Shown piece after piece: positions 4,636 through 63,868 of a DNA stretch of 64,000 nucleotides; the stretch's first letter is position 1, and every line of letters begins with the position of its first letter. The DNA comes from Chiloscyllium plagiosum (Eukaryota). Both the position numbers and the translations under genes were made by a program. The stretch is taken from NCBI RefSeq assembly GCF_004010195.1, contig NC_057754.1, positions 11,538,008 to 11,602,007 of the forward strand, in the 5' to 3' direction. A model generated the notes under the pieces. That model saw only the letters and a program-made list of their open reading frames with translations. It did no database searches and had not been told where the DNA came from.

Positions 4636-4893
4636 ACCAGCTTTCGGAACGCTGCTCCTTCAACAGGTGGTTGTGGAATCTAAGACCATAAGACACAGAA
4701 CTTATATCAAAAGATTACAGTACCACGGGGCTGAAATGATATATTGAACACACCTGGATTGTTATTAAATATTTCATCTTTCAAAATGGGTGGCAAATTT
4801 CGGTTCATTAATATGCAAATCCCAGAACTTCTCCAGATACTTCAATGTTTTATAACAAAAAGTGACATCTCAGCTCAGACAATGCATTAAAGG
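4636..4893 (-). mobile_element. Penelope-type terminal repeat fragment (family B) with a decayed hammerhead motif
   Basis: gctttcggaacgctgctccttcaacaggtg at about 4640-4669 is the reverse complement of a decayed CUGAUGA...GAAAGC core. Related copies lie at 21140, 23110, 52160 and 61887. Confidence 0.7.
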
Positions 4894-4894
4894 T

Positions 4895-6860
4895 TGGCGT
4901 TGAGAGTGTGGTGTTGGAAAAGCACAGCAGGTCAGGCAGGATCGGAGGAGAAGGAGAAACGACATTTTGAGCAAGGGCCCTTCATCAGGAATGAGTCTTG
5001 TGAGCCAAGGGGTGGGGAATGGCGCTGGGGGGAAGGTAGCTGAGAGTGCGATAGGTAGATTGTGTTAGGGATAATGACGATAGGTCGGAGAGGAAGGTGG
5101 ATGAATAGATGGGAAGGAAGATGGACGGGTAGGACAAGTCAACAGGGCCGTGCCACTTTCGAAAGTTGGATCTGGGATCTGGGGAGGCGTGTAAATGAGG
5201 AAAGGAGTAAAATCCACAATGATGTCACGTGGTTGGAACGTCTCAAAGTGGAAAATTAGGCGTTCTTCCTTCTGGTGTTGGAGGGTTAGGGTGTGGCAAT
5301 GGAGGAGGCCCAGGACCTGCATGTCCTTGGTGGAGTTGGAGGGGGAGTTCAAGTGTTTAGCCACAAGGTGGTGGGGTTGGTTGGTGTGGGTGTCCTGGAG
5401 TTGTTCTCTGAAGTGATCTGCAATTAGGCATCCTGTCTCCCAAGTGAAGAGGACACCACAATGGTAATAAATGACATGTGTGGAAGTGCAGGTAAAATTC
5501 CTTTGGATGTCGAAAGCTCCTTTGGTGGTTTGGACAGAGGTGAGGGGGAGTGGTGTGGGCGCAGGTTTTGCAATACCTGTGGTGTCAGGAAAAGACGTCT
5601 GTAGAGGAGGGTCTGTTGCTGGGGAGGGCGGGGGGGGGGGGGGGGGGGTGGGGGCCGTGGAAGGAGTCGCAGAGGGAAGGGTATTTATGGCAAATGAATA
5701 TGAGTAGGGAGGGAAATATATCACTGGTGATGGGTTCGTTTGTCGGTGACAGAGATATAAGAGGTTGATACAATGTATATGGAGGTTGGTGGGGAATGGA
5801 AGGTAAAGAGCGAAGGGTTCTGTGCTTGCTGCAGTTAGGCGGGTGGCGTTTGAGGGTGTGGGTGAGGGTGTGGGAAGTGGATGAGGCATACTGGAGGACA
5901 TTGTCGACCATGCTGGGTGGGGAATTTGTGTTCTTTGAAGAAGGAGGCCATCTGGTGTGTTCTGTGGTGAAACTCTCATCCTGGGAGCAGATGCAGTAGG
6001 AATTGGGAATAAGGGACAGCAGTTTTACAAGGGGCAGGGTGGGAAGATTTGTAGTCCAGTTAGCTGTGAGAGTCGGTGAGTTTGTGGAAGATGTCCATGT
6101 TGAGTCGGTCATCTGGAGGGAGTGGGAGGACTCAAAGGTGAAATTATTGAGGATGAAGACCAGTTCAGCCAAACGAATGAAAGTGTTAATGGAGGGGTAC
6201 TGGTGGGGATGCCAGAAGAGAAGAAACAGAGGGCTTGGAGGCCTTTGTCAAGGAAGATAGAGGTGTATGTGAACTGGATGTCCAAGGTGAAGATAAGACA
6301 TTGGGGGCTGGGGAAACAAAAGACTTGGAGGAGATGGAGGGCGTATGTGGTGTCCCAAATATATGTGGGGAGTTCCTGAACAGTGGGGATAGGACAGTGT
6401 TAAGGTATATGGAGATAAGTTCAGTGAGGCTGGAGCAGACTGTGATAATGAGTTGGCTGGAGCAATGAGGTTTTGCAGATTTTGGAGAGGAGATTGAACC
6501 GGGTGGTGTGTGCTTCCTGAACTATGAGTTTGGAGGCTGTGGGTGGGAGATTCCCTGAAGTGAATGAAGTTGTGTATGGCCTGGGAGATGATGGTTTCGT
6601 AATGGGCGGTGAAGTCACGGTCAAGAGGGCAAAAGGAGGAGGTGTCTTCGAGTTGGCGTCTGGCTTCAGCGGTGTAGAGGTCAGTGAGCCAAACTATCAC
6701 TGCATGGTCCGCTGGTTTGATGGTGAGGTTGGGGTGGAGTGAAGGGAGTGGAGGGCAACGAGTTGCGAAGGTAAGAGATTGGAGTGGGTGAGGAGTGGTC
6801 GACAGGTTGAGATGGTCAACATGGGAGGCGAAGGTGGGAGGTCAGATGACTCAAATGAAG
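4895..6860 (-). mobile_element. Penelope-like retroelement body (RT and GIY-YIG endonuclease remnants plus 3' terminal repeat), degraded
   Basis: ORF 5065-5979 ends FTCTSTHVIY...GCLIADHFREQ...VAKHLNSPS...EERLIFHF, a GIY-YIG-type domain. RT remnants include AELVFILNNFTF and YTAEARRQLEDTS. Confidence 0.88.
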
Positions 6861-7582
6861 TTCATATAACGAACCAAAATTTGCAACCCATTCTAAAAGA
6901 TGAAAGACTTATTAATCCAGGTTTTTTCAATATATCATTTCAAGTGCATGACACTGACATCTTTTTTCTATAAATTGTGTGTCTTATCGACCTCATTCAC
7001 AGCTACCTGAAGAGGAATAAATGGCTCATTCCCATGTAGTAGATTGTGAGCAATGGAGTATTGCAAGGATCAGTGAGTGAACTCCAACTATTCAGTATCC
7101 ATATCATTGATTTGAATATGGAAGCTGAGCAGAGGGGGATTATGTTTCCAAAATGAATTTCTGGGATTTACTGTACATGTAATGAACGGAAACTTGCAAA
7201 CCATTCTAAAAGATGAAAGACTTAACAATTCAGGTTTGTTCGATATATCATCTCAGTCTCATGACACTGTAATCTTTAGGTATAAATTCCGTGTCTTACA
7301 CGGCTCCACAACCAGTTGATCAAGGAGCAGTGCTTGCAAATAAACCCATTGGACTATAATCTGGTGTTGTGTGGTTTTTATCTTTGTAAAGGATGTGCGG
7401 AAAGAAACTTTATCAGCCAGCGGGTGGTTGAATCTGGAAGTCACTGTCTGTACGGGTCGGAGAAGCAGAAACCCTTTTAATGTGAAGAAGCATTCCGATG
7501 TGAATTTGTGATGCGAATACGCACAAGTCTATTTTCCGTCCAGTCCAGTCACAATAGGTTGAATAGCAGCACTCTTGCTAAC

Positions 7583-7654
7583 TTGTTGGTAGTATAGTGG
7601 TTAGTGTTGCTGCCTGTCACGCGGGAGACCGGGGTTCAATTCCCCGCTCAAGGA
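7583..7654 (+). tRNA. tRNA-Asp(GTC) pseudogene
   Basis: tagtatagtggttag...cctGTCacgcgggagaccggggttcaattccccg matches vertebrate tRNA-Asp. The T-arm and the A/B boxes are intact, but the acceptor stem (ttgttgg/ctcaagg) has two mismatches. Confidence 0.85.
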
Positions 7655-7974
7655 TATCAACTCAACTTTGTGGTAACGCAGTAAGCAGTAGCATTTTCTT
7701 TCAGCGACAGGGACCCAGGTTCTTCGTGGAGTTCACATGCCCTTCCAGAGACCATGAATGTGTAGATTAGGTGGCTTGGAGATGAAATATATTTCTCGTC
7801 AATTTGTCTCACCAGGCGTTCTTGAATACTGGACACTGCTCAATATCAAGAATTAGAACCTGTCGCCAATGCTGCATTGACATTTAAATGGAAGTGCGAA
7901 AATAAAAGGAACTTTATTTCCACTCCCATCTTCACTCTTTATGAATATGCATCGAAACAGGTAATTCAGCCCAT

Positions 7975-13290: not shown

Positions 13291-13304
13291 AACCAAGACC
13301 AGAG

Positions 13305-13441
13305 TTAGGACAAAGTGAGGACTGCAGATGCTGGAGATCAGAACTGAAAACCTGAAGAAGGGCTTATGCCCGAAACGTCGATTCTTCTGCTCCTTGGATG
13401 CTGCCTGACCTGCTGCGCTTTTCCAGCAACACATTTTTCAG
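13305..13441 (+). mobile_element. Penelope-derived mini-element (family A) with a minimal hammerhead motif
   Basis: 12-bp TSD ccaagaccagag at 13293-13304 and 13442-13453. Core ctgaaga-a-gggc-ttat-gccc-gaa-acgt-c at 13352-13379. The site is empty in the paralog at about 31705. Confidence 0.85.
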
Positions 13442-14763
13442 CCAAGACCAGAGCTGTCAGCAGAAAGCGTTACCTTTCTGCTGCTTTGAAGAGGGCAGTG
13501 TCCCAGCTCACCTGTTGACATTGTGCGGTACTTTTATATAATTTTTCTGTCTTTCAGTTCCTCCGTGTGTTTTGGGAACAAATTAAACTACTTACAGCAC
13601 AGTTTGAAAAAAATCAAAAGCTTTGAAATGTAAAGTTCACATCATTTCTCAACTTTATAATTTTCCCTTCAAATCGATTTTGTATCCTGGAATAAAATCA
13701 GAAATCAAACCAGTTCTGAGGAAAGGTGGAGAAATTAGACCACTCAGCCCATCGATTCTGCTCCGTCAATACGGCTGATAGGTTTTCCAATCCCATTTTC
13801 CCGCTTTCTCCGCCTAACCTTTGATTCCCTTGCTCCTCAAGAACAGCGGAGGCGGAGCGAATAGCAGAAGAGCAATTTTCTCAATACAAATGAAAGAAAA
13901 TAATCAATGAAGGCAGGAAAATAACACGTCAACAACCAACACAGAATAAAATGGGTTAAGGTGATGAAAAACGCAAATTTCAGTCTGAAGGGCCTTTTCA
14001 CTAAAAAGACATATTTCAATCTTTTCCCAGTTCCCACTGACATCCAGCAATGGTGGTGCCAACGTTGGACTGGAGTGGACAAAGTCAAAAATCACACACT
14101 GGGTTGTAGTCCAACAGGTTTATTTGAAAGTGCAAGCATTCGGAGCCCCGCTCCTGCCTCAGGTGAGAGAGAGTACGTCGGACACAGAATTTGTAAGTAA
14201 TACATCAAAGAGACATACAACTTATGCAAATGAATTGAACAAACCTAGATAGATAAATTGTTTTAAACGCGAATCTGGAAAATGATATTCAATGTTTTAT
14301 ATTTGTGACTGGAGAATAATGTAAAAATGATCACTGCTTATATTGGACTCTGGGGAACAAAGTTTATTGTCGAGATTGTGGTGCTGGAAAAGGGCAGAAT
14401 CCTCGGAGCAGGAGAATTGACGCTTCAGGCAAAAGACCTTCATCAGGAATTCCAGGGAATTCTGGTGTTGGGGCCTATTCCTGTGTTCCTGTTCTCTTTG
14501 TTCTATTACCAATAAAGAAAACCTGAATGATCAAAATGTTTTCATCCCAGATGTGGTTAATAGGTGAATCTGACTCGGACAGTCACATGTAAATTTCTTG
14601 CTGCCTCAGCAGGATAGTAACACCTGCGGACCAGTGTCAATATTGGGAGAGCTAACTTATAGGTCAGACAATAACCAAACATAGTCATACTTACAGCTAG
14701 CTGACTCTCATATCTCATCTTCTCCTCCCTACCTCTTACTGATTTTTTAGTCATTTCTGTTTT

Positions 14764-15090: not shown

Positions 15091-15421
15091 GTTGGTTTTT
15101 ATAGAGCCTCTCAATCTTCTGGCTTCTCACTAAACCTCACCACATTGCATACTTTTTCTTTCACTTTTATGCTGTTCCTGACTTCCTCTGTTAGCCATGG
15201 TTGCCTCATCCTCACCTTAGCAGGAACTCCTGATGAAGGGTTTATGCCTGATACGTTGATTCTCCTGTTCCTTGGATGCTGCCTGATCTGCTGTCCTTTT
15301 CCAGTGCAACACTTTCAACTCTGAACTCCAGCATCTGCAGTCCTCACTTTCTCCCAGAACAATGCTCGTTGTTTTATACTGGGCTGTGGAGGATAATAAA
15401 CTGTAATGTTTGTCAATTACA

Positions 15422-16535
15422 GATTTCCACATCCGTTTCAATTGGGCAGTTAATTCTATCACGTATTCCCGAATTTTGTCTTTCAGTGGTCCCATATCGG
15501 TTGTCCCTGTGATTACTGTCTGTCGCAATTGCATTGCTCGCCTGGTCATTAATGCATCTGGTGTCAGCTCGGTTGCCTGATTCGTGGTTGCTCTTAATTT
15601 CAGTAGTAAAATGTGACCCTTAGTCAGAGGCGATCTGGAAGGGTACCCCACCTAGGGATTACCACCTTCACCAATATTCTACCTAAAGTTTTCGTGGTGC
15701 AGCTTTTGGGCGGGGATGCTTTGATCCACCAGGTAAATTGCTGTATGGTGACCAGATAGTACGTTTTCCCACTGGAGGAAGGTAATGGCCCTTTAAAATC
15801 TATCTGAAGTTGTTTCCAAGATCTTTCAGGATGGTGCCTGAACTGCTGTGCTCTTCCAGTCGAGGTTCCAGTCCCTATTGGTGACGGGAGCCATTTTAAT
15901 AGTTTGTAGATGTCTTGTAAGTTTCCCAATCCCTGTCTTACAACCGTTCTGTCTAGGCCAAATCAATTTCCCTTCTGCACAATAAATTAGAACATGATAT
16001 TCTCTCATGAGATCATTGCCCATTATGATGCCCTCATTATTTAGGCATACATAGAATTTCATGGGGATATATATATTGTTTATTTCTATGAGGGTAGTTT
16101 CGCTTAGGTAAGCTGGTGTTTTATCCCCTCCATACCACAGTTAAGTGAATAATTTTATTTGTGTGCAGTAAGGGTAAGTTTGTGTTGGAAACAGCTGCTC
16201 CTGTGTCTATTAGCATTACACATTTCCTGCATCCTGTTATTGCCAGCACGTAAATTCTCCCCTCTCCCTTACCATCATGAATGGGAGCAGCTGGTTGTCA
16301 GCTCTGCTGACTTTGGGTTATCCGCAATTCCACAATGCAATAGGTAATGTTTGGGGGTGCCCCATGCATTCCCTACATACTGCTACTATGTGTCCTATTA
16401 TCTTGCAATGGCTGCAGTATTGTACATTGTTTCCTGCTCTATCTATTGTATTCTGTCCTCCAGCTCTTTAACTTGTTCCTATTTCTTTCTCCACCTACTC
16501 GTGGAGGCACTCACATTTTCAATTAGGAGAGGAAA
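15422..16535 (-). mobile_element. Internally deleted retrovirus-like/LTR element: gag zinc knuckle, protease, integrase
   Basis: Minus strand shows CSHCKIIGHIVAVC (CX2CX4HX4C, about 16375-16416), VMLIDTGAAVS (DTG at 16199-16207), IMGNDL and the integrase core LQIDFKGPLPSSSGKTYYLV...VIPRWG...SD*GSHF. LRATTNQATELTP follows. Confidence 0.88.
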
Positions 16536-17045
16536 AAATGGAGGGCTTGGAGGCCCTGATCATGGCGGATGGAGGTGTAGAGGGATTGGATATCGATGAT
16601 GAAGATGAGGCGTTGGGGGACTCCATACAAAATGTGGACTTCACCAGTTTCCTCATTTCCCCTTCCCTCACCTCACCCCAGTTCCAAACTTCCAGCTCAG
16701 CACTGTCGCCATGACTTGTCCTACCTGCCTATCTTTCTTTCCACCTATCCACTCCATCCTCCTCTCTGACCTATCACCTTAATTCCACCCCATTCACCCA
16801 TTGTACTCTTTGCTACCTTCCTCCCTCCTCTTCCCTGACCTATCACCTTCATCCCCACCCCCACTCACATATTGTACTCTATGCTACTTTCTCCTGACCC
16901 CCACCCTCCTCTCATTTATCTCTTCACTCTTCAGGCACTCTGCCTGTAGTCCTGATGAAGGGCTTTTGCCCGAAACGTTGATTTTCCTGGTCCTCGGATA
17001 TTGCCTGAACTGGTGTGCTTTTCCAGCACCACTCTAATCCAAAAT
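16536..17045 (+). mobile_element. Penelope family A fragment with an inverted RT piece and an intact hammerhead core
   Basis: The minus strand at 16540-16620 reads DIQSLYTSIRHDQGLQAL (Penelope RT). The plus strand at 16952-16979 reads ctgatgaagggcttttgcccgaaacgtt. Confidence 0.8.
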
Positions 17046-23104: not shown

Positions 23105-26100
23105 ATGATGTGGAGGAGCCGATGCCGGACTGGGGTGGACAGATTAAAAATCACACAACATCAGCTTATAGTCCAGTAGGTTTACTTGGAAGCACCACCT
23201 TCGGAGCGCTGCTCCTGCAACACGTGATTGTGGAGTCTAAGACCGTAAGACACAGAATTTATTTCAGAAGATTACAGATTCACGAGGCTGAAATGATATA
23301 TTGAACAAATCTGGATAGCTATTAAATATTTCATCTTTTAGAATGGGTGGCAAATTTTGGTTCATTCATGTGCAAATCCCAGAACCTCTTTTATGTCACC
23401 TTCTCCAGATAATTTAAGATTTTATAACAAAAGGTGACATCTCAGCTAAGACAATGCATTAAAGGTGAGAGTCGAGAGTGTGGTGTTGGAAAAGCACAGG
23501 AGGTCAGGCAGCATCGGAGGAGCAGGAGAAATGACATTTTGGGCAAGGGCTCTTCATCGGGAATGAGGCTTGTGAGCCAAGGGGGTGGGGAATGGCACTG
23601 TGGGGAAGGTAGCAGAGAGTGCGATAGGTAGATGGTGGTGGGGGTAGTGATGATAGGGCAGAGAGGAGGTTGGAGTGGATAGATGGGAAGGAAGATGGAC
23701 AGGTAGGACAGGTCCAAGAGGGCCGTGCCACTTCCGAAGGTTGGATCTGGGATCTAGGGAGGAGAGTAAATTAGAAAACTAGTAAAATCCATATCGATGC
23801 CACGTAGTTGGAGCTTCCCAAATTGGAAGATGAGGCTTTCTTATTCCTGGTGTTGGATGGTTAGGGTGTGGCAATGGAGGAGGCCCAGGACCTGCATGTC
23901 CTTGATGGAGTGGGATGGGGAGTTCAAGTGCTTGGTCACAAGGTGGTGGGGTTGGTTGGTGTGGGTGTCCTGGAGTTGTTTTCCGAAGTGTTCTGCAAGT
24001 AGGCATCCTGTCGTCCCAATGAAGAGGACACTGCAAAAGCAACAACGGATACAATAAATTACATGTGCGCAAGTGCAAGTAAAATTCCTTTGGATGTCGA
24101 AGGCTCCTTTAGTGGTTTGTGCAGAGGTGAGGGGGAGAGGCAAGAGATATGTGAGAAAAGCTTTTACACACAGAAACCAGTTTGGGTATAGAAGGCACTG
24201 CTTGGAAATGTGGCGGGGGGGGGGGGGGGGGGGAGGAGGGTGGTGGTGGTTTGGACCTGACAAGGGATTCGCGGAGGGAATGGTCTTCAGGGAAAGTGGA
24301 TATGGGTAGGTCATGGAACATATCCCTGGTGATGGGGTTCATTTGTCTGTGACACAGATATCAGAGGTTGAAATGATGTATATGGAGGTTGATTGGGGTA
24401 TGGATGGTCAAGACCAAAGGGTTCTGTCCTTGCTACATTTAGGCGGGTGGGGTTCGGGGGTGGAGGGATGGGAAGTGGATGAGGCACACTGGAGGACATT
24501 GTCGACCATGCTGGGTGGGGAAATTGCGATCTTTGAAGAAGGAGGCCATCTGGTGTGTTTTGTGGTGAAACTCTCATCCTGGGAGCATATGCAGCAGAGG
24601 CAGAGGAGTTGCAAATAAGGGACAGCATTTTTACAAGGGGCATGGTAGGGGGAGGTATAGTCCAGGTAGCTGTGGGAGTAGGTGAGTTTGTGGAAGATGT
24701 CAATGTTGAGTTGGTCACTATTGATGGAGATGGAGAGGTCCAGGAAGGGGAGGGAAGTGTGTGGGATGTTCCAACCAATCATAAGGTTGAGGTGGAATGT
24801 ATTGGCGAAGTTGATGAACTTTTCAACCTCCTTGAGTGTTCACGACACAGAGCCAATACAGTCATTAATGTAATGGTGAAAAAGGTGGGGAGTGTTACCC
24901 GTGTAAGTGTTCCACGTAAACAACAAAGAGACGGACATGGCTGAGGCTCAAGCGGATGCCCATGGCTACCCCTTTCATCTGGAGGAAGTGGGAGGATTCA
25001 ACGGTGAAAGTATTGAGGGTGAGAACCAGTTCAGCCATGCGAATGAAAGTGTCAGTGGAGGGGTACTGGTGGGGATGCCGGGATTGAAGAAACAGCGGGC
25101 TTGGAGGCCTTTGTCATGGTAGAAAGGGGTGTATGTGAACTGGATGCCCATGGTGAAGATGAGGCATTGGGGGCTGGGGAAACAAAGGTCTTGGAGGAGA
25201 TGGAGGGCTCATGTGGTGTCCCAAATGTACGTGGGGAGTTCCTGAATTGTGTGGGTAGGATAGTATCAAGGTCTGTGGAAATGAGTTCAGTGAGGCTGGA
25301 GCAGACTGAGGCAATGTGTAGGCTGGGGCAATGGGGTTTGTGAATTTTGGGTAGGAGATTGAACCGGGTGGTGTGTGCTTCTGGAACTATGAGTTTGGAG
25401 AATGTGGGTGGGAGATTCTCTGAAGTGTTTAGGTTGTGTATGGCCTGGGATAATATGGTTTTATGATAGGCGGTGAGGTAATGTTCAAGGGGGCAAAAGG
25501 AGGAGGTGTCTTCGAGTTGGCGTCTGGCTTCAGCGGTGTAGAGGTCAGTGAACCAAACTATCACTGCATGGTCCGCTGGTTTGATAGTGAGGTTGGGGTG
25601 GAGTGAAGGGGTTGGAGGACTGTCAGTTGCGAAGGTAAGAGGTTAGAGTGGGTGAGAAGGGGTCCACAGGTTGAGGTGGTCAACATGGGAGGCGAAGGTG
25701 GGAGGTCAGGTGACTTATATAAAACGAGCCAAAACTTGCAACCCATTCTAAAAGATGAAAGACTTATCAATACAGGGTTTTTCAATATATCATTTCAGGT
25801 GCATGACACTGAGATCTTTTGCTATAAATTATGTGTCTTCTGATCCTCGTCCACAGCTACCTGAAGGGGAGTAAATGGCTCATTCTCATGTAGGTAGATT
25901 GTGACCAATGGAGTATTGCAAGGATCGGTGAGTGGACTCCAACTATTCAGAACCAATATCATTGATTTGGATATGGAAGCTGAGCAGAGGGGATTATATT
26001 TCCAAAATGAAGTTCTTCGATTTACTGTCTGTATAATGAACGGAAACTTGCAAACCATTCTAAAAGATGAAAGACTTAACAATCCAGTTTTGTTCAATAT

Positions 26101-26240
26101 ATCATCTGAGTCTCATGACACAGTAATCTTTAGCTATAAATTCCGTGTCTTACATGGCTCCACAACCAGCTGATGAAGGAGCAGCGCTCGGAAAGCTAGT
26201 GCTTGCAAATAAACCTATTGGTATAATCTGGTGTTGTGTA
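23105..26240 (-). mobile_element. Penelope family B terminal repeat carrying a nested Penelope family A body (about 23470-25712), paralog of 4636-7385
   Basis: ORF 23841-24314 reads FTCTCAHVIYCIRCCFC...IGTTGCLLAEHF (GIY-YIG). RT remnants lie at 24408-25564, and a plus-strand hammerhead-like core at 26170-26198. Confidence 0.85.
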
Positions 26241-33079: not shown

Positions 33080-33190
33080 AGGAGAAAGTGAGGACTGCAG
33101 ATGCTGGGGGCTGGAAAAGCGCAGCAGGTCAGGCAACATCCAAGGAGCAGGAGAATCGACGTTTCGGGCATGAGCCCTTCTTCAGGAATA
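33080..33190 (-). mobile_element. Penelope family A mini-element with an intact hammerhead core
   Basis: 33153-33189 reverse-complements to attc-ctgaaga-a-gggc-tcat-gccc-gaa-acgt-c-gattc. The site is empty in the paralog at about 14015. Confidence 0.8.
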
Positions 33191-33827
33191 ACACATTTTC
33201 AATCTTTTCCCCGCTCCCGCCGACATCAAGCCATGATGGAGAGGTACCGAAGTTCGACTGGAGTGGATAAAGTCAAGAATCATACGACGCTAAGTAATAG
33301 TGCAACAGGTTTATTTGGAAGTGCAAGCGTTCAGAGCCCCGGTCGTTCCTCAGGCGGAGTTTATAATTAAAAAAATCAAAGAGTCATACAACTTGTGCGA
33401 ATGTATTGAACAAACCTAGATAGCTAAATTGTTTTAAACTCTGTTCTGGGAAATGATATTCAATATTTGATATTTGGGGCCGGGAAACTAATGTAATAAT
33501 GGTCACTGTTTTACATTGAACTCTGGGGAGCAATGTTTATTGTCGAGAGTGTGGTGCTGGAAAAGAACAGCATCCGAGGAGCAAGAGAATCGACGTTTCA
33601 GGCAAAAGCCCTTTATCAGGAATTACAGGAAATTCCTGTGTTGGAGCCTATTCCTGTGTTGTACTTTTCTCTGTTCTCTTTGTTCTATTACCAACAAAAT
33701 AAACCTGAATGATCAAAATGATTTCTTCACAGATGTGGTTAATAGGTGAATCTGACTCTGACAGTCACACGTAAATTTCTTGCTGCCTCTGAAGCATAGT
33801 AACATCTGGGGGCTAGTGTCAACATTG

Positions 33828-33950
33828 AAGAAGGGCTTATGCCCGAAACGTCGATTCTCCAGCTCCTTGGATGCTGCCTGACCTGCTGCGCTTTTCCAGC
33901 AACACATTTTTCAGCTCTGATCTCCAGCATCTGTAGTCCTCACTTCCTCC
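33828..33950 (+). mobile_element. Penelope family A mini-element
   Basis: tcaacattg lies on both sides (about 33819-33827 and 33951-33959). The element starts inside the hammerhead core. The paralogous site at about 14637 (tcaatattg) is empty. Confidence 0.82.
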
Positions 33951-34507
33951 TCAACATTGGGAGAGCCAACTGGAGAAACAATAACCAAACATAGTCATAC
34001 TTACAGCCAGCTGACTCTCATATCTGATTTTCTCCCACTTACATCTTATTGATTTTTTAATCATTTCTGCTGGTTTCTAGTACGCCTATCAATCCTCCAG
34101 CTTCCCACTAAACATCACCACATTGCACGCTTTTTCTTTTGCGTTTATGCTGTCACTGACTTCCTCTGTGAGGCATGGTTGCCTCATCCTCCCCTTCGCA
34201 GGAATTCCTGATGAAGGGCTATACGTTGATCGTCCTTCTCCTTGGATGCTGCCTGACCTGCTGTCCTTTTCTAGTACAACACTTTCAACTGTGATCTCCG
34301 GAATCTGCAGTCCTCACTCTCTCCCAGAACAATGCTCATTGTTTTATATTGGGCAGTGGAGGATAATAAACTGTAATGTTTATCAATTTCAGATCATAGC
34401 AATTACAGAAACATGGCTCAGAGATGCGCAGGACTGGCAGATTAATGTTCCAGGATACAAATGCTACAGGAAGGATAGAAAGGGAGGCAAGAGCGGAGGG
34501 GGAGTGA

Positions 34508-36770: not shown

Positions 36771-37529
36771 CTTTTCCATTTTCCAGATGGATGTCAGCAT
36801 TTTGCTTCCCCAAATAGTTTTGGCGGTGGTGCAGCTCGATTTGGCACACTTGTAGTCCTCTGATATACCTTCAGGTTGGTTCCTGATTTTGAGTTCTGCC
36901 TCCTGCTGTTCCTGGCATGGTCTCCAACACTCTCTTTATTGAACCAAAGTTGATCTCCTTGGCTTGATGATAATGATAGAGATGGGAATATGCCAGGCCA
37001 TGAGGTTACAGATTGTGGTTGAATACATGTCTCATGCTGTTGCAGTGACTGGATGATGCTCAGTTTTGAAGCAAAGCACCACAAAGACTAAACCTGTGAT
37101 TTCCGAGGCTGGGAAAAGATGTTCTTCTGAGAGTTGAAGATGTATAATGATTTTTGAATGGACTTGAAGTTCAGGTTGAGGTTCAGGTTGTATGTTTGTT
37201 CACTGAGCTGGAAGGTTTGTTTTCAGATGTTTTGTTTCCATGATAGGTAACATTATCAGTGAGCCTCCGGTGAAGTGCTGGTGTATGTCCTGCTTTCTAT
37301 TTATGTGTCTTGGTTTCTTAAAGAGGGTGATATAGTTTCTGCTTCTACCTATATTGACTTGGGTGGGGCAACATTGAATAGTGATGTACAGAATATATAA
37401 TGAGCATGGCAGTGTGACATGATTAAATTGAGAGAACTGGATGGGAAGTGGAGGATCTCCCAGAGTATTGAGAGAATGTGTGAATCTTCTTTGCTGTGTA
37501 TAAGGAGATTTTATAATGAACATCAGGAC

Positions 37530-39465
37530 TTAGAGTAACACAGCAAGGAAACAGGCCCTTCAGCCCAAACTGCTCCATGCTGACCATGGTGCCCACCCAG
37601 CTAGTTCCAATTGTCCACATTTGGACAATATCCCTCTAATCCCTTTCCATCCATATACCTGTCCAAATGTTTTGTCAAGTTGCTATTGTACCTGCCTCAA
37701 CCACTTTCTCTGGCAGCCCATTCTATGTACACACCACTCTCTGCCTGAAGAAGTTACCCCTCAGGTCCTTCGTAAATCTTTGCCGTCTCACCTTAAACAT
37801 ATGCCCTCTAGTTTTCTATTCCCCATCCCTGGGAAAAAGGCAATATGCATTCATCCTCTTTGTGCCCCTCATGATTATATATACCTCAATGAGGTCACCC
37901 TTATTCTCCTATGTTCCAAGGAATAAAGTCATATCCTGGCCAACCTCTCCCTATAACTCAGGCTGACTAGTCCTGGCAACATCCTTGTAAATATTTATTG
38001 CAGGCTTTCAGGTTTAACTATGTCTTTCCTGTAATAGGGTGACCAAAACTGTACACAATACCCCAAGTGTGAACTCACAAACAACATATACAACTGTAAC
38101 ATAACGTCCCAACTTCTATACTCAATGCCTCAACTGATGAAGGCAAACATGCTAAATGCCTTCTTCACCACCCTGCCTACCTGTGATACTGCTTTCAAAG
38201 AACTATGTACTTGTACTCTTCGGTCCCTCTGTTCAACACCTTACCATTTACGATGTAAGTCCAACCTTGCTTTGACTTTACAAAGTGCAACACCTCACAC
38301 TTATCTGTATTGAATTGCATTTGCCAATCCTCAGCCCACTTCCCCGTCTGATCAAGATCCCTTTGTAATATTTGATGATCTTCCTCACTATCAACGATAC
38401 CGCCTTATTTTGTATCATCTGCAATCTTACTGATCATGCCTTGAATGTTCAATCCAGATAATTTATGTAAATATCAAATAGCAACGGTCCCATCACTGAC
38501 CCCTGTGGCATAGCACTAGTCACAGGCCTACAGTCCAAGAAACAACCTTCACGCATCACCCTCCGCTTCCTACCATCGAGCCAATTTTGAATCCAATTAG
38601 CTAGCTCTCCCTGGATCCCATGCGACCTAACCTTCATGTCTAGCCAGCTGTGCGGGACCTTGTCAGAGGCCTTACTAAAGTCCATATAGACAACATCCAC
38701 TGCCCTACCCATACATATCCTCTTTGTTACTTTTTCGAAAAACTCGAAAAGATTTGTGAGACATGACTTCCTGTGAACAAATCCACACTGACTATCCCTA
38801 ATTACACCTTGACTATCCAAATGTTGGTTGGTCCTACCCCTCAGTATCCTCTCCAACAACTTGCCTACCACTGATATCAGGTTCACTGGCCTGGAGTTCC
38901 CTGGCTTGTCTTTGTTACCTTCCTTAAACAATGGGAACAACATTAGCCATCCTCCAGAAGAGAAAATGCTGGGAAATCTCAGCAGGTCTGGCAGCATCTG
39001 TAAGGAGAGAAGAGGTTTATCCCTAGTATAAATACCTCCCTATTTCTCCCTTTTTTAAGCTTTGACAAAGGGTCAGTTAGACTCGCAACATCAACTCTTT
39101 TCTCTCCTTACAGATGCTGCCAGACCTGCTGAGATTTTCCAGCATTTTCTCTTTTGGTTTCAGATTCCAGCATCCGCAGTAATTTGCTTTTAGCCACCCT
39201 CCAGTCTTCCGGGACATCACCAGTGGCTAAAGATGAGCAAGAATCTCTGCAAGTGCCTCTGCAATTTATTCCCTAGCCTCCCACAATGTCCGAGGATGGA
39301 CTTGTTCAGGCCCGGGGATTTATCCACATTAATGTGCTTTAAGGCTACAAACACCTCCTATCTGATAATATGTATGCAGTCCAAAGCATCCCCATTTGTT
39401 TCCCTTATTTCCTTAGCATCCACAATTCTCTCAGTAAACACTGAGCAGAAATATTCATTAAAATG
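37530..39465 (-). mobile_element. CR1 RT and 3' end
   Basis: ORF 38449-38997 reads PGNSRPVNLISVVGK...YMDFSKA...PQGSVMGPLLF. Confidence 0.92.
38958..39189. mobile_element. Palindromic Penelope-type mini-element inserted in CR1
   Basis: 15-bp TSD ttagcca(t/c)cctccag at 38943-38957 and 39190-39204. Inverted arms at about 38958-39015 and 39094-39152. A decayed hammerhead-like sequence ttgacaaagggtc-agtta-gactcgcaacatc lies at about 39062-39092. Confidence 0.8.
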
Positions 39466-47072: not shown

Positions 47073-47162
47073 TCACAGGATGCTCCCAAGCACTGAGGAT
47101 GTCACCTAGACAGGGGACGAAACGTTTGCAACAAAAACTTCCAGCTCGGCGAACAGAACCAC
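47073..47162 (+). ncRNA. 90-bp insertion carrying a minimal hammerhead ribozyme motif (family C)
   Basis: gca-CTGAGGA-t-gtcacct-agac-aggggac-GAA-ACGT-T-tgc at 47090-47129. 14-bp TSD agcaatgtagaggt at 47059-47072 and 47163-47176. Confidence 0.8.
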
Positions 47163-50565: not shown

Positions 50566-50925
50566 GTAAAAACAATGACTGCAGATGCTGGAAACCAGAT
50601 ACTGGATTAGTGGTGCTGGAAGAGCATAGCAGTTCAGGCAGCATCCAAGGAGCTTCAAAATCGACGTTTCGGGCAAAAGCCCTTATCAGGAATAAAGGCA
50701 GTGAGCCTGAAGCGTGGAGAGATAGGCTAGAGGAGGGTGGGGATGGGGAGAAAGTAGCATAGAGTAGGAAATGACCTGGGAGTTGCAGTGGGAGAGGGAC
50801 TCCCTGAGATTCTTGTAGAGAGAGGAGGAAAACTTCTTCAAGGCAGGCATCCTTGCAAGAGGATTCGCAGTAGGGTTAAAATCAATGAGGTAAAAACAAT
50901 GACTGCAGATGCTGGAAACCAGATT
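50566..50925 (-). mobile_element. Penelope family A fragment with a partial tandem terminal repeat
   Basis: gtaaaaacaatgactgcagatgctggaaaccaga occurs at 50566 and again at 50890. A hammerhead-like core lies at about 50661-50690 on the minus strand. Confidence 0.8.
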
Positions 50926-52159: not shown

Positions 52160-52470
52160 TAACACAATATCTTGCAACACCAGGCAAGTTTAATTGGAAG
52201 CACACTAGCTTTCGGAGCGCCGCTCCTTCATCAATCTGTTTCTCCACATCTCTGCTGCTATTGGAAGCACACTAGCTTTCGGAGCGCCGCTCCTTCATCA
52301 GGTGATAGTGGAGGACACAATTTTAAGGCACAGAATTTATAGCAAAAATTTCCAGTGTGATGTAACTGAAATTACACATTGAAAAATACCTTAATTGTCT
52401 GTTGAGTCTTTCATCTGTTTGAATACCATGATAGTTTCACTTCTTTCATGTGTAAATCACAAAACCTTTT
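52160..52470 (-). mobile_element. Penelope family B terminal repeat with two tandem hammerhead motifs
   Basis: cacactagctttcggagcgccgctccttcatca occurs at 52201-52233 and 52268-52300. The second has a full minus-strand core cac-CTGATGA-a-ggagc-ggc-gctcc-GAA-AGCT-A-gtg. Confidence 0.85.
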
Positions 52471-52944: not shown

Positions 52945-54390
52945 GTAGATGAAGTGACAAAGATGATTGAGGAAGGCATAGCAGTCGACGTGGTCTATAT
53001 GGATTTCAGGAATGTGTTTGACAAGGTAGACTGGTTAACAAGGTTAGATCTCAAGGAATACAGGGAGAACTAGCCATTTGGCTCAAGGATAGAAGACAGA
53101 GGGTGGTGGTGGAGGAACGCCTTTCAAACTGGAGGCCAATGACCAGCGCTGTGCCACAAGGATTGGTGATGGGTCCCCTGCTTTTCATATTGATATAAAT
53201 GATTTAGATGTGAACATAGGAGGTATAGTTAGTAAGTTTGCAGATGATACCAAAATTGGAGGTGTAGTAGAAAGAAGTGCAGAAGGTTACCTCAGAGTAC
53301 AACGGGACCTTGATCAGATGGGCCAGTGGGTCGAGGAGTGGTAGATGGAGTTTAATTTAGATAAACGTGAGGTTCTGCATTTTGAAAAGGCAAATCAGAG
53401 CAGGACTTAGACACTTATGGTAAGGTCCTAGGGAGTTTGGCTGAACAAAGAGATCTTGGCATGTAGGTTCATTGTTCCTTGGAAGTCGGGTCACTGGTAG
53501 ATCGGATAGTGAAAAAGGCATTTGATATGCTTTCCTTTATTGGACGGAGTATTGAGTGGTGCTGGAAATGCACAGCTGGATAGGAACAGGAGAGTTGATG
53601 TTTTGAGCATAAGCCCTTCAGCAAGATTGGTTTGGGGGGGGGGGGGTGGGGGTGGAGGGGGAACATAAAGGCACCCCCCGCATTTCTCATGAAAAGCTTA
53701 TGCTTGAAACATAGACTCTGCTGCTCCTTGGCTGCTGCCTGACCGGCTGTGCTTTTCTAGCGCCACACATTTTGACTCTGATACTCCAGCATCAGCATTC
53801 CTCACTTTCTCCTGTTGGAGTTGGGAGGTCATGTTGTCGCTGTATAGGACATTGGTGCGGTTGCTTTTGGATTACTGCATTCATTACTGGTTTCCCTGCT
53901 ATAGGAAAGATGTTGTGAAACTTGAAAAGGTTTGTAAAAGATTTAATAGAATGTTGCCAAGGTTGGAGGGTTTGAGCGATAAGGAGAGGCTGAATAGGCG
54001 GGGGCTATTTTCTATAGAGCTTCAGAGACTAAGAGGTCATCTTATAAAAGTTTTTAAAATCATGAGTGTCATGGAACAGTGAATTGTCATGGTCTTTTCA
54101 CCAGGATAGCGAAGACAAAAACTAGAGGTCATAAAATTAAGGAGATGGGAAAGATTTAAAAGGGACCTTAAGGATAACATTTTCACAGAGGGTGATGTGT
54201 GTGTGTGGAATGAACTGCCAGAGGAAGTGATGGAGGCTGCTACTATTAAAATATTTAGTGGCATCTGGATGGGTATATGAATAGAAATGGTTTAGAGGGA
54301 TATGGGCCAGAAGTAGATTAATTTATTTGCTCAGCATGAACAAGTTGAATCAAAGGGTCGGTTTTCATGCTGTACATCTCTCTGACTCCA
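52945..54390 (+). mobile_element. CR1 RT 3' fragment with a nested palindromic Penelope family A piece (about 53555-53812)
   Basis: KFADDTKIGGVV near 53233 and ORF 53831-54082 (LYRTLVR...DYCIHYW). Confidence 0.85.
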
Positions 54391-57009
54391 TGATGTGAAG
54401 CTGGGTGGAGCAGTGAACTATTAGGGGGAATACAGATATGCTCCAGTGTGATTTTGGAGTTGAGTGAGTAGACAAAAATGCAAGGCAGATGAATGATAAT
54501 GCAGATAAATGGGAGGTTAACCAGTCTGATCACAAAAACAGGATGACAGATTATTATCTGAATGGCAAGAGGCTGGGAAAGGGGGAGATGAAATGAGACC
54601 TGGTGTCCTTGTACACAAGTCACTGAAAGTTAGCATGCAGGTGCAGCAGGAGGTGAAGAAGGCAAATGGTGTATTGGCAAGAGGATGTACAGGAGCTAGG
54701 ATATAGATATAGTATCCCTACAGTGTGAAAACTGGTCATTTGGCCCAACAAGTCCACACCGACATTCTGAAGATCATCACACTGAAACCCATCTGCCTAA
54801 ACTATCCCTACAACCTGGCATTTCCCATGGCTAATCCATGTAATGTACACATCCCTGGATACTATGGGCAATTTAGCATGGCCAAACCCTCACATCATTG
54901 GACTGTGGGAGGAAACCAGAGGAAACGCCTGCACATTCGCTCTGTGTCTGCGTGGGTTTCTTGCAGGTGCTCCAGTTTCCTCTAATAGTCTTACTGCAAT
55001 TGTCCAGGGTCTTGGAGAGAAATCGGAGTTAGCGTTTCGGTTCAGTGACCCTTCCTCAACCTACAGCAGAATGAGTGCGAGGCGGGTGGGGGGAGTCCTC
55101 AGTGAAAGTCAAGAATGAAGCAATTAGGACTAGGTCTGCTAGAGCCAGAGTATTGTTCCCTGCATTGAGGGGAGGACTGCTTTCTGTCCACTCTTTTTAC
55201 AGCACATTCAATCAATAGTATTTCCACATTGTCAATCCCAACCAGATATCACAGTAAGACCTAACAGAGTCGCTGCACTCACCAGCATCTCACTATCATC
55301 GGCCTTTCACTGTGCACGATTTTCTATCGTGTCTGTGGGAAAACCTTTCTGAGATCAGTGTCAATGGAAGAGCGCCAAGAGATGCAAAATCATGAGCAGA
55401 GCAGCTCCAAAGGATGTGTCTGGGTATCACAGTTCAAAGGAGAGACTGGGCTTTCCAGGGGGAGCAGTGCGATTTACCCTAATGATTCCTGGATCAAGGG
55501 GTTATATGATGAGCAGCGGTTGTAGAAATCAATCTTGGATTCAGTATGGCAGAGAAAGAAGTAATTTAGCCTATTTCATCAATGCCAATTTTCTTGCAGA
55601 AATGCATTCTCTCCAATTCCCCTGCAAGTTTATTTCCCTTAAATACTTATCTAATTTCCTTTTTTAAGTCATTGATTCTCTTTTTTTTCCACCCAGAAGC
55701 AGAGAGGACTGTGTAGAACCATTCATTCTGAGGAACAACAGAGCTTTGTTCCCCTTGTATCTGTTGTTGAAATAGTTCAGGTGGGAGTACATTAGCTGAA
55801 GGATATAAAGGTTCCTGGTTCAATCCCAAGTTTCACCAGTCAGTTTTATGCACCATGGTGGCCAAGTGCTACCTTGCAGTGCCACAAACCTGGATTTGAT
55901 TTCACCTTTGTGTGATTTTCTGAGTGGAGTTTGCACGTTCTCCCAGTATCTGCGTGGGTTTCTGCTAGGTATTGGAGTTCTGTGCCATTGTCCAAGGATG
56001 TGCAGGTTGGGTGGATTGACCATGCTCAAAATTATGCTGTAGTGTCCAGGGATGTGTGCAGGTTAGCTGATTTAGCTATATAAAAACACCATACTCGGTT
56101 ACTGGAATGGGGGGTGGGGGTTGAATGGAGTGGGAGGGAGGGAGGAGAGTCTGGGTGGCATGCCAAAAGGAGGGAGGTGCAGACTTAATGGGATAAATGG
56201 CCTTTTCCTGCACTGTAAGGATTATGATTCTATCTTTTGCCCATCTTGGAATGATTGATTCGGGTTAGGGATACTACCCAACATTTTACAAGTTACATGA
56301 TTCATTTGGATGAGAGGATTGAAAGCAAGGTAGCTAAAGATCGATAGAAAACTGTTGTTTGAAGACATGAGGTTGCAGGCAGATATAGTTAGGGTTGGTG
56401 TATGGGCAAAATATCTTGCAGATGGAGTTCAATATATAAGTAATTCACTTTGGCAGGAAGAATAATTAAGAGCAGAGTTCCTTAGATGGAGAACGACTGC
56501 AGAATTCTGAGGTGCAGAAAGATTTCTGAGTCATAACGTATGAGTCACAAAGTTAGTACGTGGATTCAGCATGCACGTGTAGTCAAACATCATTGAAAGA
56601 GACCTTTTGGTTTCACTAGTGCAAGCTGACCATGTTCCCAAACTAAAGTAATTCCACCTTCCTGTGTTTGGTCCATATATCTCCAAACATAGAGTCATAG
56701 AGATGTACAGCATCGGAACAGGCCCTTTGGTCCAAGCTGTCCATGCAGACCAGATATCTCAACCCAATCTAGTCCCACCTGCCAGCACCTGGCCCATATC
56801 CCTCCAAACCCTTCCTATTCATATACCCATGCAAATGCCTCTTAAATGTTGCAATTGTACCAGCCTCCACCACTTCTTCTGGCAGCTCATTCCGTACACG
56901 TACCACTCTCTGTGTGAAAAAGTTGCCCCGTAGGTCTCTTTTATTATCTTTACCCTTTCACCCTAAACCTATGCCGTCTAGTTCTGGACTCCCCGACCCC
57001 AGGGAAAAG

Positions 57010-60910: not shown

Positions 60911-62790
60911 AAGCTGCCAGTCCTGCCCATCCCTGAGCCATGTTCCTGTAATTGCTATGATATCCCAGTCCCATGTTCCTACCCATGCCCTGAATTCATC
61001 TGCCTTCCCTGTTAGGCCCCTTGCATTGAAATAAATGCAGTTTAATTTATTAGTCCTACCTTGTCCTTGCCTGCCCTGACTGTTTGACTCGCTTCTGTTC
61101 TCAACCGTACCAGTCTCAGATCGATCTCTTTCCTCACCATCTCCCTGGGTCCCATTCCCGCCACCTTATTAGTTTAAATCCTCCCATGCAGCTCTAGCAA
61201 ACTTCCCTGCCAATACATTAGTCCCCTTCCAATTTAGGTGCAATCCGGCCACCTTGTACAAGTCACTTCTACCCCAAAAGAGATTCCAATGATCCTCCTT
61301 TTTAAATTCCTGCCTTACTCTCTGTAATCTCCCTTCAGAATCTCAACCTTTTCCCTTCCATTGGTTTCAATGTGGACAATGACCTCTTGCTGGCCCCTCT
61401 CCCCCATGAGAACATTCTGCACCCTCTCTGAGACATCCTTGATCCTGGCATCAGGGAAACAACACACCATTCTGATTTTTTTCCTGCTGGCCACAGAAAC
61501 GTCTGTCTGTACCTCAGAGTAGACAGTCCCCTAACACAATTGATCTCTTGTAACCTGACTTACCCCTCATTGCATTAGAGCCAGTCTCAATACCAGACCC
61601 TTGGCTGTTCGTGCTGAGTTCCCCTGAAAATCCATCACCCCCTACATTTTCCAAAACAGCATACTTGTTTGAAATGGGTATATCCACAAAAGACTCCTGC
61701 AATAGCTGCCTACCTCTCTTATCTTCCCTGGCGTTTAACCCATCTATGTAACTGTATCTGAGACTTTCCCCCCTTCCTATAACTGCCTTCCATCACATAC
61801 TGTTGCTTTTGCAAATTCCTCATTGCTTCTATCTCTCCAATCGATCTGTTCGATCTGATAAGATTCGCAGCCTACAGCATTTATGATTTGGAAATGCTGG
61901 TGTTGGACTGGGGTGTACAAAGTTAAAAATCACACAACACCAGGTTATAGTCCAACAGGTTTAATTGGAAGCACACTAGCTTTCAGAGCGCCTGACTATC
62001 ACCTGATGAAGGAGCGACGATCCGAAAGCTAGTGTGCTTCCAATTAAACCTGTTGGCATGTAACCTGGTGTTGTGTGATTTTTAACTTTGTGCAGCATTT
62101 ATGACAGATGTAATCCACAGTAATCCTTAAACTCTCTTTAAACTCCCACATCTGACAAGAAGTACATATCATTCTATTAATGACCATTTTTGCTCCTTCA
62201 CAATCTACAGACCCAGAAAATAACACCATCTTATTCCTCTCCAAACACTGCCCCAGGTTAAATTAATAGTTATGGCTTATATTTTAAGTTTAATCAAGAG
62301 ACATATCTCCAAAAAACATATAATCAAGAAAGAACCCACTGTACTCCCTACTGCAGATTCTCTGTGGGCCACACTTAAAAACAACGATGAATTTATCTGA
62401 TTCTGTGCCTTGAACTTCGCCCAACAGTTCATCCATGATCAGTTGTGAATTTCACTGCTTGTTAATTTTCCCAGATGCACTCCGATGTCCAACGATATAT
62501 GAATTCAAACAGCAAAGGCAGTAAGTGTGCAGGTTCACTCTCTCTCTGTCTCTTTCTCCCCTGCAATGACCTCACCATGTACTTCCTTTGTGTGCTCTTC
62601 TCCCTTTTAATATGGCTGTTGTTTTGACTTTCTTTTTCCCAAAGTTCCAAAACAATGCAACAGCATATAAAACAGTAATTGGTGCTCCTGGTGTTCGAGG
62701 AAATCACCTCCAACCCCTAAAATACCTCAAAAAGGAGCAGCTGTTATAGCCAGAAATTTTTCCCATCCTCCATCTTGGATTACCCCCTTT
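60911..62790 (-). mobile_element. CR1 5' end (5'UTR, esterase-type ORF1, start of ORF2)
   Basis: ICTSCQMWE...YICHKC (62044-62244) and NKYAVLENVGG...IVLGD (61514-61702). The start of the APE domain lies at about 60911-61045. Confidence 0.85.
61887..62092. mobile_element. Palindromic Penelope family B mini-element with a hammerhead motif
   Basis: 12-bp TSD cagcatttatga at 61875-61886 and 62093-62104. Inverted arms of about 70 bp surround cac-CTGATGA-a-ggagcgacgatcc-GAA-AGCT-A-gtg at 62000-62034. Confidence 0.88.
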
Positions 62791-63013
62791 CCTATTCATG
62801 AACTTATCGAAATGTCTTTTAAACATTGTAACTGTACCTGCATCCACCACTTCCTCTGGCAGTTAATTCCATATCACCACTCTGTACAAAGAAAATAAAT
62901 TTCCCATTATGTCTTTGTTAAATCCTTCTCCTCTCACCTTAAAAATATGCTTCCTAATTTGGATCTCCCCACCTGAGAGAAAATATCTTTGCTATTCACC
63001 TTATGTATTCACC

Positions 63014-63298
63014 TGGGCGGCATGGTGGCTCAGTGGTTAGCACTGCTGCCTCACAGCGCCAAAGACCTGGGTTCATTTCCCACCTCAGGCAACTGTCTGT
63101 GTGGAGTTTGCACATTCTCCCCGTGTCTGTGTGGGTTTCCTCCCACACTCCAAAAATGTGCAGGTTTAGCTGAATTGGCCATGTGTATTGTGAAGAGGTA
63201 AATGTAGGGGAATGGGTCTGGGTGGGTTGGTCTTCGGAGGGTCGGTGTGGACTTGTTGGCCCGAAGGGCCTGTTTCCACACTGTCAGTGATCTAATCT
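63014..63298 (+). mobile_element. HE1-type SINE inserted in a minus-strand CR1 3' fragment
   Basis: tRNA-like head and tctaatcta tail. Confidence 0.92.
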
Positions 63299-63571
63299 AT
63301 GCCCCTGGTGATTTATAAACTTCTATAAGATCACCACTCAACCTCCTACACTTCAGCTAAAAAACATCCCAGCCTATCCATCCTGTCTCTATAATTCATT
63401 TCTGGCAACATTCTGGTAAATCTTTTCTGAACCCTCTCTGGTTTAATAATATACTTCCTATAACAGGGTGACCAGAACTGCACACTGTATTCCAGAAGAG
63501 CCCTCACCAACATCCTGTATAACCTCAACATGACGTCCCCACTCCTATACTCAAAAGTCTGAGCAATGAAG

Positions 63572-63868
63572 GGTAAAAACAAGGACTGCAGATGCTGGAA
63601 ACCAGAGTCTAGATTAGAGTGGTGCTGGAAAAGCACAGCAAGTCAGGCAGCATCCGAGGAGCAGGAAAATCAACGTTTCAGGCAAAAGCCCATCATCAGG
63701 AATAGAGGCAGGGTGCCTGCAGGGTGGAGAGATAAATGATATGGGTGTGTGGGGGTGGGGAGAAAGTAGTAGAGTACAGTAGGTTAATGGGGGTGCAGAT
63801 TGAGGTGATAGGTCAGAGAGGAGGGTGGGTTTCTTGTAGAGAGAGGAGGAAAACTCCTTCATGAAGGC
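63572..63868 (-). mobile_element. Penelope family A terminal fragment inserted in CR1
   Basis: Homologous to 50566-50845, with a hammerhead-like core at about 63670-63700. gcaatgaagg / tcatgaaggc flank it. Confidence 0.8.

Follow-up and report, generated by a model that had tools for sequence, protein, structure and literature searches.

Minimal type I hammerhead motifs, probably carried by Penelope-like elements, in a 64-kb window of the Chiloscyllium plagiosum genome

The stretch of DNA analysed here, a window of 64,000 nt on contig NC_057754.1 of Chiloscyllium plagiosum, is repeat-rich animal DNA in which remnants of CR1-type long interspersed nuclear elements (LINEs) are numerous; three gaps contribute 2,272 N and the called sequence amounts to 61.7 kb. 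Dispersed through it are small motifs of the hammerhead ribozyme type and, on the minus strand, decayed open reading frames (ORFs) of Penelope-like elements (PLEs) (Table 1). We regard the motifs, with a probability of about 0.85, as minimal type I hammerheads residing in the pseudo-long-terminal-repeat (pLTR) ends of PLEs, an origin seen directly for the family designated A and inferred for families B to E; the copies are mostly 5'-truncated and likely inert. The association of PLEs with minimal hammerheads was published in 2014, and the copies in the window belong to this known class.

One question then is how far such short motifs can be told from background. A strict type I descriptor, demanding an intact core, a stem II of at least 3 bp, a palindromic stem III and a stem I of at least 2 bp, matched the window six times and each of 20 dinucleotide shuffles not at all. 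Without the stem I condition there were seven matches (13352, 16952, 33185-, 63699-, 52301-, 62003 and 47093, the sign denoting the minus strand) and none in any of 15 block shuffles. Tolerance of one mismatch gave 11 matches against 0-1 in the block shuffles; with two mismatches the block shuffles already yield 0-5, and for this reason the most decayed copies were called by family homology and not by the descriptor. The nhmmer profiles, built from seed copies, recovered these further members with family E-values down to 1e-27. An Rfam scan at E<=5 returned no hammerhead family and nine unrelated weak matches, which has no bearing on the minimal form. Since CUGANGA alone occurs 46 times in the window, in many cases inside CR1-type reverse transcriptase (RT) remnants, the motifs might be taken for chance matches or CR1 look-alikes; the complete lack of full motifs in 35 shuffles, together with the family homology, refutes this view, to which we assign practically no probability.

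Of 28 sites parsed base by base, 26 have the full layout (14 in family A, eight in B, two in C and one each in D and E), and the remaining two (9553 and 28828) retain only the 5' half of the motif. All core letters (CUGANGA, GAAA and UH, in type I order) are present in eight of the 26 copies, and stem II as well in seven. The representative copy of each of the five families has the extra base between positions 9 and 10.1, the G10.1-C11.1 pair and stem II. A 4-nt palindrome serves as stem III in all seven complete copies, being ACGU in families A and C and AGCU in family B, and is broken in the single copies of families D and E. Stem I comprises 3 bp in families B and C and 4 bp in the 16952 copy, most family A copies having 2 bp and a mismatch; it is lost in 13352, 33825 and 52234.

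This layout coincides with the consensus published for minimal hammerheads, NNN CUGANGAH G-stem II-C GAAAN palindrome NU H NNN (PMC4209133, Fig. S3; statements on the literature refer here and below to the accessible parts of the sources). The metazoan PLE hammerheads described there by Cervera and de la Pena have an extra base after A9, the G10.1-C11.1 pair and palindromic positions 15.2-16.2, and they occur as many families per genome, mostly as solo copies, with a U3-A8 variant. The window has in common with them the type I topology, CUGANGA with its extra base, G10.1-C11.1, the 4-nt palindrome as stem III, the short stem I, the place in the pLTR, the U3-A8 variant and several families made up mostly of solo copies. 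Among the entries of Fig. S3, that of Acropora Neptune is close to family A (GGGC/GCUC, ACGU) and that of Clonorchis to family C (GUCACC stem), while Chrysemys has the AGCU palindrome of family B. The density appears higher here, with seven complete cores in 62 kb as against genome-wide counts of about 4,000 motifs in the coelacanth and about 9,000 in Xenopus (PMC4209133). The U3 and A8 letters at 39062-39092 form the published covariant pair, and in a single copy they could also reflect double decay.

From family to family the core stays the same, whereas compensatory changes affect stem II pairs 2-3, the palindrome and the first stem I pair, albeit in few events and with no statistic attached. 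Stem II pair 2 alternates between G-C and U-A and pair 3 between G-C, A-U and C-G; similarly, the palindrome alternates between C-G and G-C and the first stem I pair between C-G, A-U and U-A. Because MAFFT mis-registered family B by one column, these changes were read from a structure-anchored parse.

Much of what a first-pass annotation, made from the letters of the window, had proposed stands. All 20 sites that it listed carry a hammerhead-derived motif when their contexts are checked and parsed, a minimal type I descriptor does find the motif, a constant core with stem II and palindrome differing between families is borne out, and several hammerhead lineages do co-exist, namely families A to E. 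The family C motif at 47090 and its decayed copy near 37223(-) were likewise correctly placed, and the variants near 39062 and 55030 parse as families D and E. Its grading of individual copies requires amendment. The family A motifs called intact (13352, 16952 and 33153(-)) have complete cores, but 13352 lacks the 5' strand of stem I; among those called decayed, 63670 has a complete core and 33826 is young and 5'-truncated. The four sites assigned to family B (26170, 52201, 52268 and 62000) all belong there, but 26170 has a G.G in stem II and 52201 is without C3 and stem I. Nine sites left unmarked for strand (4960, 14420, 23530, 33586, 50661, 52201, 52268, 55030 and 63670) are on the minus strand. 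Six full-layout copies are to be added to the list: 4666-, 23223-, 14162-, 33353-, 53624- and 53686+.

Table 1. Hammerhead motifs, insertion units and PLE coding remnants in the window (positions counted from its first letter; HHR, hammerhead ribozyme; TSD, target-site duplication)
Feature	Position	Strand	Remarks
Family A minimal HHR	4961..4988	-	Decayed; G12 and palindrome lost at CpG; ~200 nt 3' of PLE ORF end
Family A minimal HHR	13352..13379	+	Spans C3 to H17; full core, 4-bp stem II, ACGU, GUC site
Young family A insertion unit	13305..13453	+	12-bp TSD; inverted ~44-nt distal tail, HHR-to-proximal end
Family A minimal HHR	14419..14446	-	Decayed (A15.1); duplicate of 33619
Family A minimal HHR	15230..15257	+	A14 lost; tail present; duplicate of 34208
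Family A minimal HHR	16952..16979	+	Full core, GUU site; stem I of 4 bp, the best
Family A minimal HHR	23533..23560	-	Decayed; duplicate of 4988
Family A minimal HHR	33158..33185	-	Complete core, GUC site; young insertion
Family A minimal HHR	33592..33619	-	G8 lost; family majority keeps G8
Family A minimal HHR	33825..33852	+	Young, 5'-truncated inside core; 9-bp TSD
Family A minimal HHR	34208..34230	+	Deletion runs through stem II
Family A minimal HHR	50663..50689	-	1-nt deletion in 5' core
Two family A copies	53597..53713	both	Strongly decayed; head-to-head, 53624- and 53686+
Family A minimal HHR	63672..63699	-	Complete core; stem II has one G-U
Family B minimal HHR	4638..4666	-	Decayed; duplicate at 23223-
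Family B variant	14134..14162	-	Decayed; duplicate at 33353- (33325-33353)
Family B minimal HHR	26170..26198	+	All core letters present; G.G breaks the first pair of stem II
Family B partial tandem copy	52206..52234	-	67 nt downstream of 52301; without C3 and stem I
Family B minimal HHR	52273..52301	-	Full core with CUA site; 5-bp stem II, palindrome AGCU, stem I CAC/GUG
Family B minimal HHR	62003..62031	+	Complete core, stem II 3 bp
Family C minimal HHR	37226..37259	-	Decayed
Family C minimal HHR	47093..47126	+	Complete core; stem II longer, bulged; AUG at A9-N-G10.1
Family D minimal HHR	39062..39092	+	U3..A8 core pair, else decayed; inverted unit 38954-39191
Family E minimal HHR-like single copy	55031..55059	-	Decayed or truncated
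Decayed 5'-truncated PLE ORF	5188..6826	-	RT, broken CX4CxxC linker, GIY-YIG endonuclease
Decayed PLE RT/GIY-YIG ORF	23763..25690	-	Duplicate of 5188-6826
PLE RT fragment	16502..16636	-	Head-to-head with pLTR piece 16631-17048; E about 1e-3 to 1e-4

The Penelope association put forward by the first-pass annotation holds for family A through physical linkage as well as through the published layout. An ORF with RT and, at its C-terminal end, GIY-YIG endonuclease, followed by a motif-bearing pLTR, is found at one locus and its duplicate, where motifs 4988 and 23560 lie about 200 nt 3' of the broken frame on the same strand; the RT scrap at 16502-16636 comes in addition. Pfam, applied to 12 ORF pieces of the window, gave no match for the seven PLE pieces, and its matches to RVT_1, Exo_endo_phos and GDSL belong to CR1/L2-type LINEs; a word-seeded protein search with the 23844-24338 piece gave 82 candidates, none significant. 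A HMMER search with a 108-residue ORF piece found 277 relatives among 1.84 billion proteins, and Pfam was run on eight of the 150 relatives listed. Every one of the five that are long (590-827 aa) matches both RVT_1 and GIY-YIG, several of these matches being under the Pfam curated cut-offs, and all five align back colinearly on 5206-6826 and 23781-25690; of three short ones, two have a GIY-YIG match and one has none. A CX4CxxC linker is present in all five long relatives, and the window copy (about 5540-5565) keeps the CxxC and has a stop at the first Cys. Such a linker, CX2-5CxxC, is the mark of the Neptune and Nematis clades (PMC8557442), to which family A may, from its linker, be tentatively assigned. 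Family A resembles these endonuclease-containing PLEs in its RT, linker and C-terminal GIY-YIG and also in its 5' truncation, partial tandems, inverted 5' copies and 30-40-bp tail; unlike in them, the ORFs of the window are all broken. Downstream of the motif (about 13400-13427, and in other family A copies) the sequence resembles a branch point, a pyrimidine run and a CAG acceptor and could be the end of a pLTR intron.

The copy count is inflated by a duplication of the region itself, in which 4626-15424 recurs at 23184-34394 with 80-88% identity and an offset of 18-20 kb. This old segmental duplication consists almost wholly of repeat relics, and its pairs of filled and empty sites can be used to date insertions. 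By virtue of the duplication five copy pairs (4666/23223, 4988/23560, 14162/33353, 14446/33619 and 15230/34208) represent one insertion each and, with the inverted pair 53624/53686 and the tandem pair 52234/52301, the 26 copies reduce to about 19 insertion events. Empty sites in the paralogous block, at 13352 (for the whole unit 13305-13453), 33825 and 33185, identify these three as later insertions with target-site duplications.

The insertions have the anatomy expected of PLEs, for which 5' truncation, partial tandems, inverted 5' copies and a 30-40-bp tail are described (PMC8557442). Target-site duplications of 9-14 bp flank 13352, 33825, 47093 and 62003. Family A combines all four traits, that is 5' truncation, inverted or partial-tandem junctions, an optional tail and target-site duplication. 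Its inverted junctions lie at 13352, where the inverted tail has replaced the 5' strand of stem I, at 16636, beside the pLTR piece 16631-17048 at whose end the 16952 motif sits, and at 53624/53686; its partial tandem lies ahead of the 50689 copy and includes a tail and a likely ORF start (50770-50930). The 33825 copy, 96% identical to 13352 over 78 nt, extends through a ~34-nt tail to about 33951 and is truncated inside the core, so that its apparent U3 is target-site DNA. The 3' ends of family A fall into two classes about 34 nt apart, which fit the two RT start sites of the Anolis carolinensis Poseidon element PAc (PMC11167929). Family B has inversion, tandem and duplication (the 62003 motif belongs to unit 61884-62094, which is inverted and bears a 12-bp target-site duplication), family C duplication and family D inversion; head-to-head inversions occur in A and B. 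It is from this anatomy, and not from an adjacent ORF, that the PLE link of families B, C, D and E is inferred. Family C has a further point of resemblance, in that PAc likewise carries an AUG where stem II begins, its cut site lying 26 nt further on, as compared with about 27 nt in the window (PMC11167929), and on this analogy the family likely belongs to the Poseidon clade. It differs from PAc in being represented by one insertion of ~85 nt with a 14-bp target-site duplication (47093) and one decayed copy, without an ORF. As in Anolis Poseidon, the AUG within the motif opens a frame across the cut site (47099-47160, +).

In this context, some of the families could instead be non-LTR retrozymes, tandem and circle-forming units that lack autonomy and propagate through hammerhead cleavage and rolling-circle copying. 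Retrozymes of this kind are regarded as descendants of PLE pLTRs; both PLEs and tandem units with hammerheads have been reported across vertebrates, and the retrozymes are known from one chondrichthyan genome (10.64898/2026.07.22.740005). They share with the window type I hammerheads from PLE pLTRs and an abundance of monomers (10.64898/2026.07.22.740005; PMC7229834). The window also holds one family B pair, 52301/52234, its sole close same-family tandem pair, and no family B ORF was found in it. Unlike the retrozymes, the window has no head-to-tail array with a motif in each unit, nor does any tandem array in it contain the motif. The B pair is itself a partial tandem in which the second copy is defective; together the two could form one complete core with a predicted cut at 52206, but the dimer fold, at -13.6 kcal/mol, is unfavourable relative to the minimum-energy fold of -39.6 kcal/mol. 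Moreover, none of 11 family A insertions starts at the cut site. The sole start of that kind is a D/E-type arm at 9557/28832 (duplicates), the junction of which can be explained by stem I complementarity. We therefore consider a retrozyme origin quite unlikely. The two inverted D/E-type units concerned, 9491-9575 and 28766-28850, are duplicates of each other; in both the minus arm begins one base past the cut site, the plus arm is the 5' half of the motif only, and the arms are joined via stem I complementarity.

If the motifs are PLE hammerheads, then in the parent elements two motifs of a tandem transcript would, judging from the literature, pair through the 4-nt palindrome (ACGU or AGCU) and so rebuild stem III. 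The cut predicted after GUC, GUU or CUA would be weak and would probably require the help of a protein. The statement of the first-pass annotation that such hammerheads cleave as dimers was too strong: PLE monomers are reported as inactive and dimers as cutting weakly in vitro (PMC4209133), and the Anolis PLE hammerhead required protein in order to cut, could be dispensed with for insertion in vitro and had no RNA-seq ends reported at its cut site (PMC11167929). Of nine Xenopus retrozyme dimers eight gave no cleavage and one was cut (10.64898/2026.07.22.740005). Selection on the parent lineages, and not on the dispersed copies, would preserve the core even as the stems diverge from one family to another. 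Priming of cDNA by the RT and endonuclease of the element would occur at two positions, some 90 and 125 nt downstream of the core, and would explain the density of motifs, since even short insertions would tend to carry one.

Whether individual copies function where they sit is a separate matter. The changes in family A, counted by column in nine ungapped copies of 14 (two of the nine being duplicates), fit passive decay. Within the motif, 12 of 45 cells in CpG columns carry a change, as against 9/150 for non-CpG core and stems; the latter figure (3/87 in the core and 6/63 in the stems) does not differ significantly from that for downstream positions (32/351; p=0.29). As the copies decay chiefly at CpG and include a single tandem pair, most of the dispersed copies are likely inert. 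The alternative sees in the intact dispersed copies ribozymes of the host, active or co-opted, which alone or as trans-dimers would cleave its transcripts on a large scale; it could draw on the seven complete cores in the called sequence and on public reads over 33050-34400, a 1.35-kb segment with five family A/B copies and one deleted copy. One DNA run supplied 104,376 contigs that aligned to this segment and a presumed RNA run 8,998 contigs; 2,509 single-cell poly(A) RNA reads of run X21 aligned as well, taken from about 13 million reads or about 2% of the run, and a second single-cell run (X22) contributed 0 reads. Among the sequencing runs listed for 4600-7400 there was none of RNA. The family RNA reads are in both orientations. 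The DNA contigs have by majority G8 at 33614, which accounts for 437,439 of a summed depth of 478,651, and likewise A15.1 at 33329 (81,885 of 83,585), the latter within the copy at 33325-33353, so that the family cores are intact at both places, a point in favour of the PLE reading. The summed depth reaches 8.3 million on family A, compared with 18-73 in the emptiest bins, and suggests roughly 10^5 family A copies, an order of magnitude from summed depth and not a copy number. Against a host function, folding gives the palindrome duplex no more than -1.7 to -2.5 kcal/mol, published activity is low or protein-dependent, and copies decay at CpG. In addition, RNA depth in run X21 stays level over the 33852 cut site, and neither starts nor ends pile up among the rows listed, a weak negative, as the library is fragmented and 96% of the aligned reads come from other loci. 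Large-scale cutting of host transcripts thus appears highly improbable.

Several observations nevertheless weigh against inert copies of PLE ends as the full account. A profile from Neptune-type relatives detected within the window no remnant of an ORF next to families B, C, D and E, which could therefore be non-autonomous derivatives; short copies, on the other hand, need not carry an ORF. The low non-CpG rate in the family A core (3/87 versus 32/351 downstream) would allow some constraint on individual copies, although the copies for this comparison were picked via the motif. Family A has a weak stem I, in which a mismatch separates 2 bp from 1 bp, and in none of the seven complete copies is the hammerhead fold the minimum-energy monomer, although stem II forms in all of them, with a pair probability of 0.88-1.0 in six and 0.65 in 62003. 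Lastly, the 5' ends of family A cluster at the motif border beyond the expectation for random truncation. Five of 11 independent insertions (13352, 14446/33619, 15230/34208, 33185 and 33825) start at -4 to +3 of C3, the 33185 insertion starting at about -4 to -6; of the others four are long, one starts at +13 to +20 and one is an ambiguous inverted pair.

This clustering raises the possibility, additional to a PLE origin, that the short copies are a distinct class of product, derived from transcripts whose start would be set by an initiator-like motif on the 5' border of the hammerhead. From internal priming 90-125 nt downstream, the PLE RT would copy these to their 5' end and produce, in place of random truncations, 'hammerhead-first' mini-elements similar to short interspersed nuclear elements (SINEs). 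Under a uniform null the clustering has a rough P of 2e-4 to 3e-3, and the ends are fixed by empty sites in three of the five insertions. A match to the initiator-like pattern YYANWYY, for which the background is 0.012 per position, has its A at -4 in four of five long copies, two of which are duplicates. Both initiator-bearing pLTR promoters (PMC3846280, PMC2377424) and internal initiation by the RT (PMC11167929) have been described. However, the numbers are small, the null and the bin were picked after the data had been seen and retrieval was seeded on the motif. ATTC is also the 5' strand of stem I and would be conserved without need of a promoter; fragments of B, D and E begin from -8 to +34 or far upstream; many reads and contigs run upstream into shared pLTR sequence (loose ends at 33189 and 33826); and RNA starts show no pile among the rows listed of one weak RNA run. 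The head-to-head joints at 33187-33189 were left out of the clustering evidence, as reference copies end there. We accordingly offer only as a tentative and rather doubtful proposal that transcripts of a Neptune-type element begin with the first base of stem I and that the RT of the element makes roughly 10^5 precise 'hammerhead-first' mini-insertions. If this were true, genomic 5' ends would map the pLTR start site and the uncleaved RNA would be the template in vivo, which would bear on what PLE hammerheads do.

Other features of the window include decayed C2H2 zinc-finger coding remnants with stops at 42530-43300 (+), with scraps at 4570 (-), 20986 (-) and 40321 (-), which suggest a zinc-finger cluster region. 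A 669-bp inverted repeat of 97% identity at 29907-30575 lies beside an assembly gap and is possibly an assembly artefact, and a 51-bp minisatellite of 8.2 copies at 36359-36774 is without a hammerhead. tRNA-like heads (7589-7647, +) accompany an abundant repeat of ~300 bp (for example, 14773-15093, 39495-39816, 57005-57263 and 63011-63299), which is likely a tRNA-derived SINE of the HE1/V-SINE kind; ARAGORN found no tRNA.

The role of PLE hammerheads is still unsettled (PMC11167929, PMC8557442). A literature search of partial coverage found no paper on PLE hammerheads in sharks, and a search by name found no chondrichthyan in the Fig. S3 alignment or Table S1 of PMC4209133, so that the window, from a shark-type genome, adds to the 2014 survey a taxon absent from those parts of it, and with it a very high copy number. 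The families that lie side by side constitute a natural mutation series, from which it could be learned which minimal hammerheads cut and whether the protein of the element is needed. Likewise, the distribution of the 5' ends of copies is a cheap probe of whether the RNA that served as template was cleaved or uncleaved.

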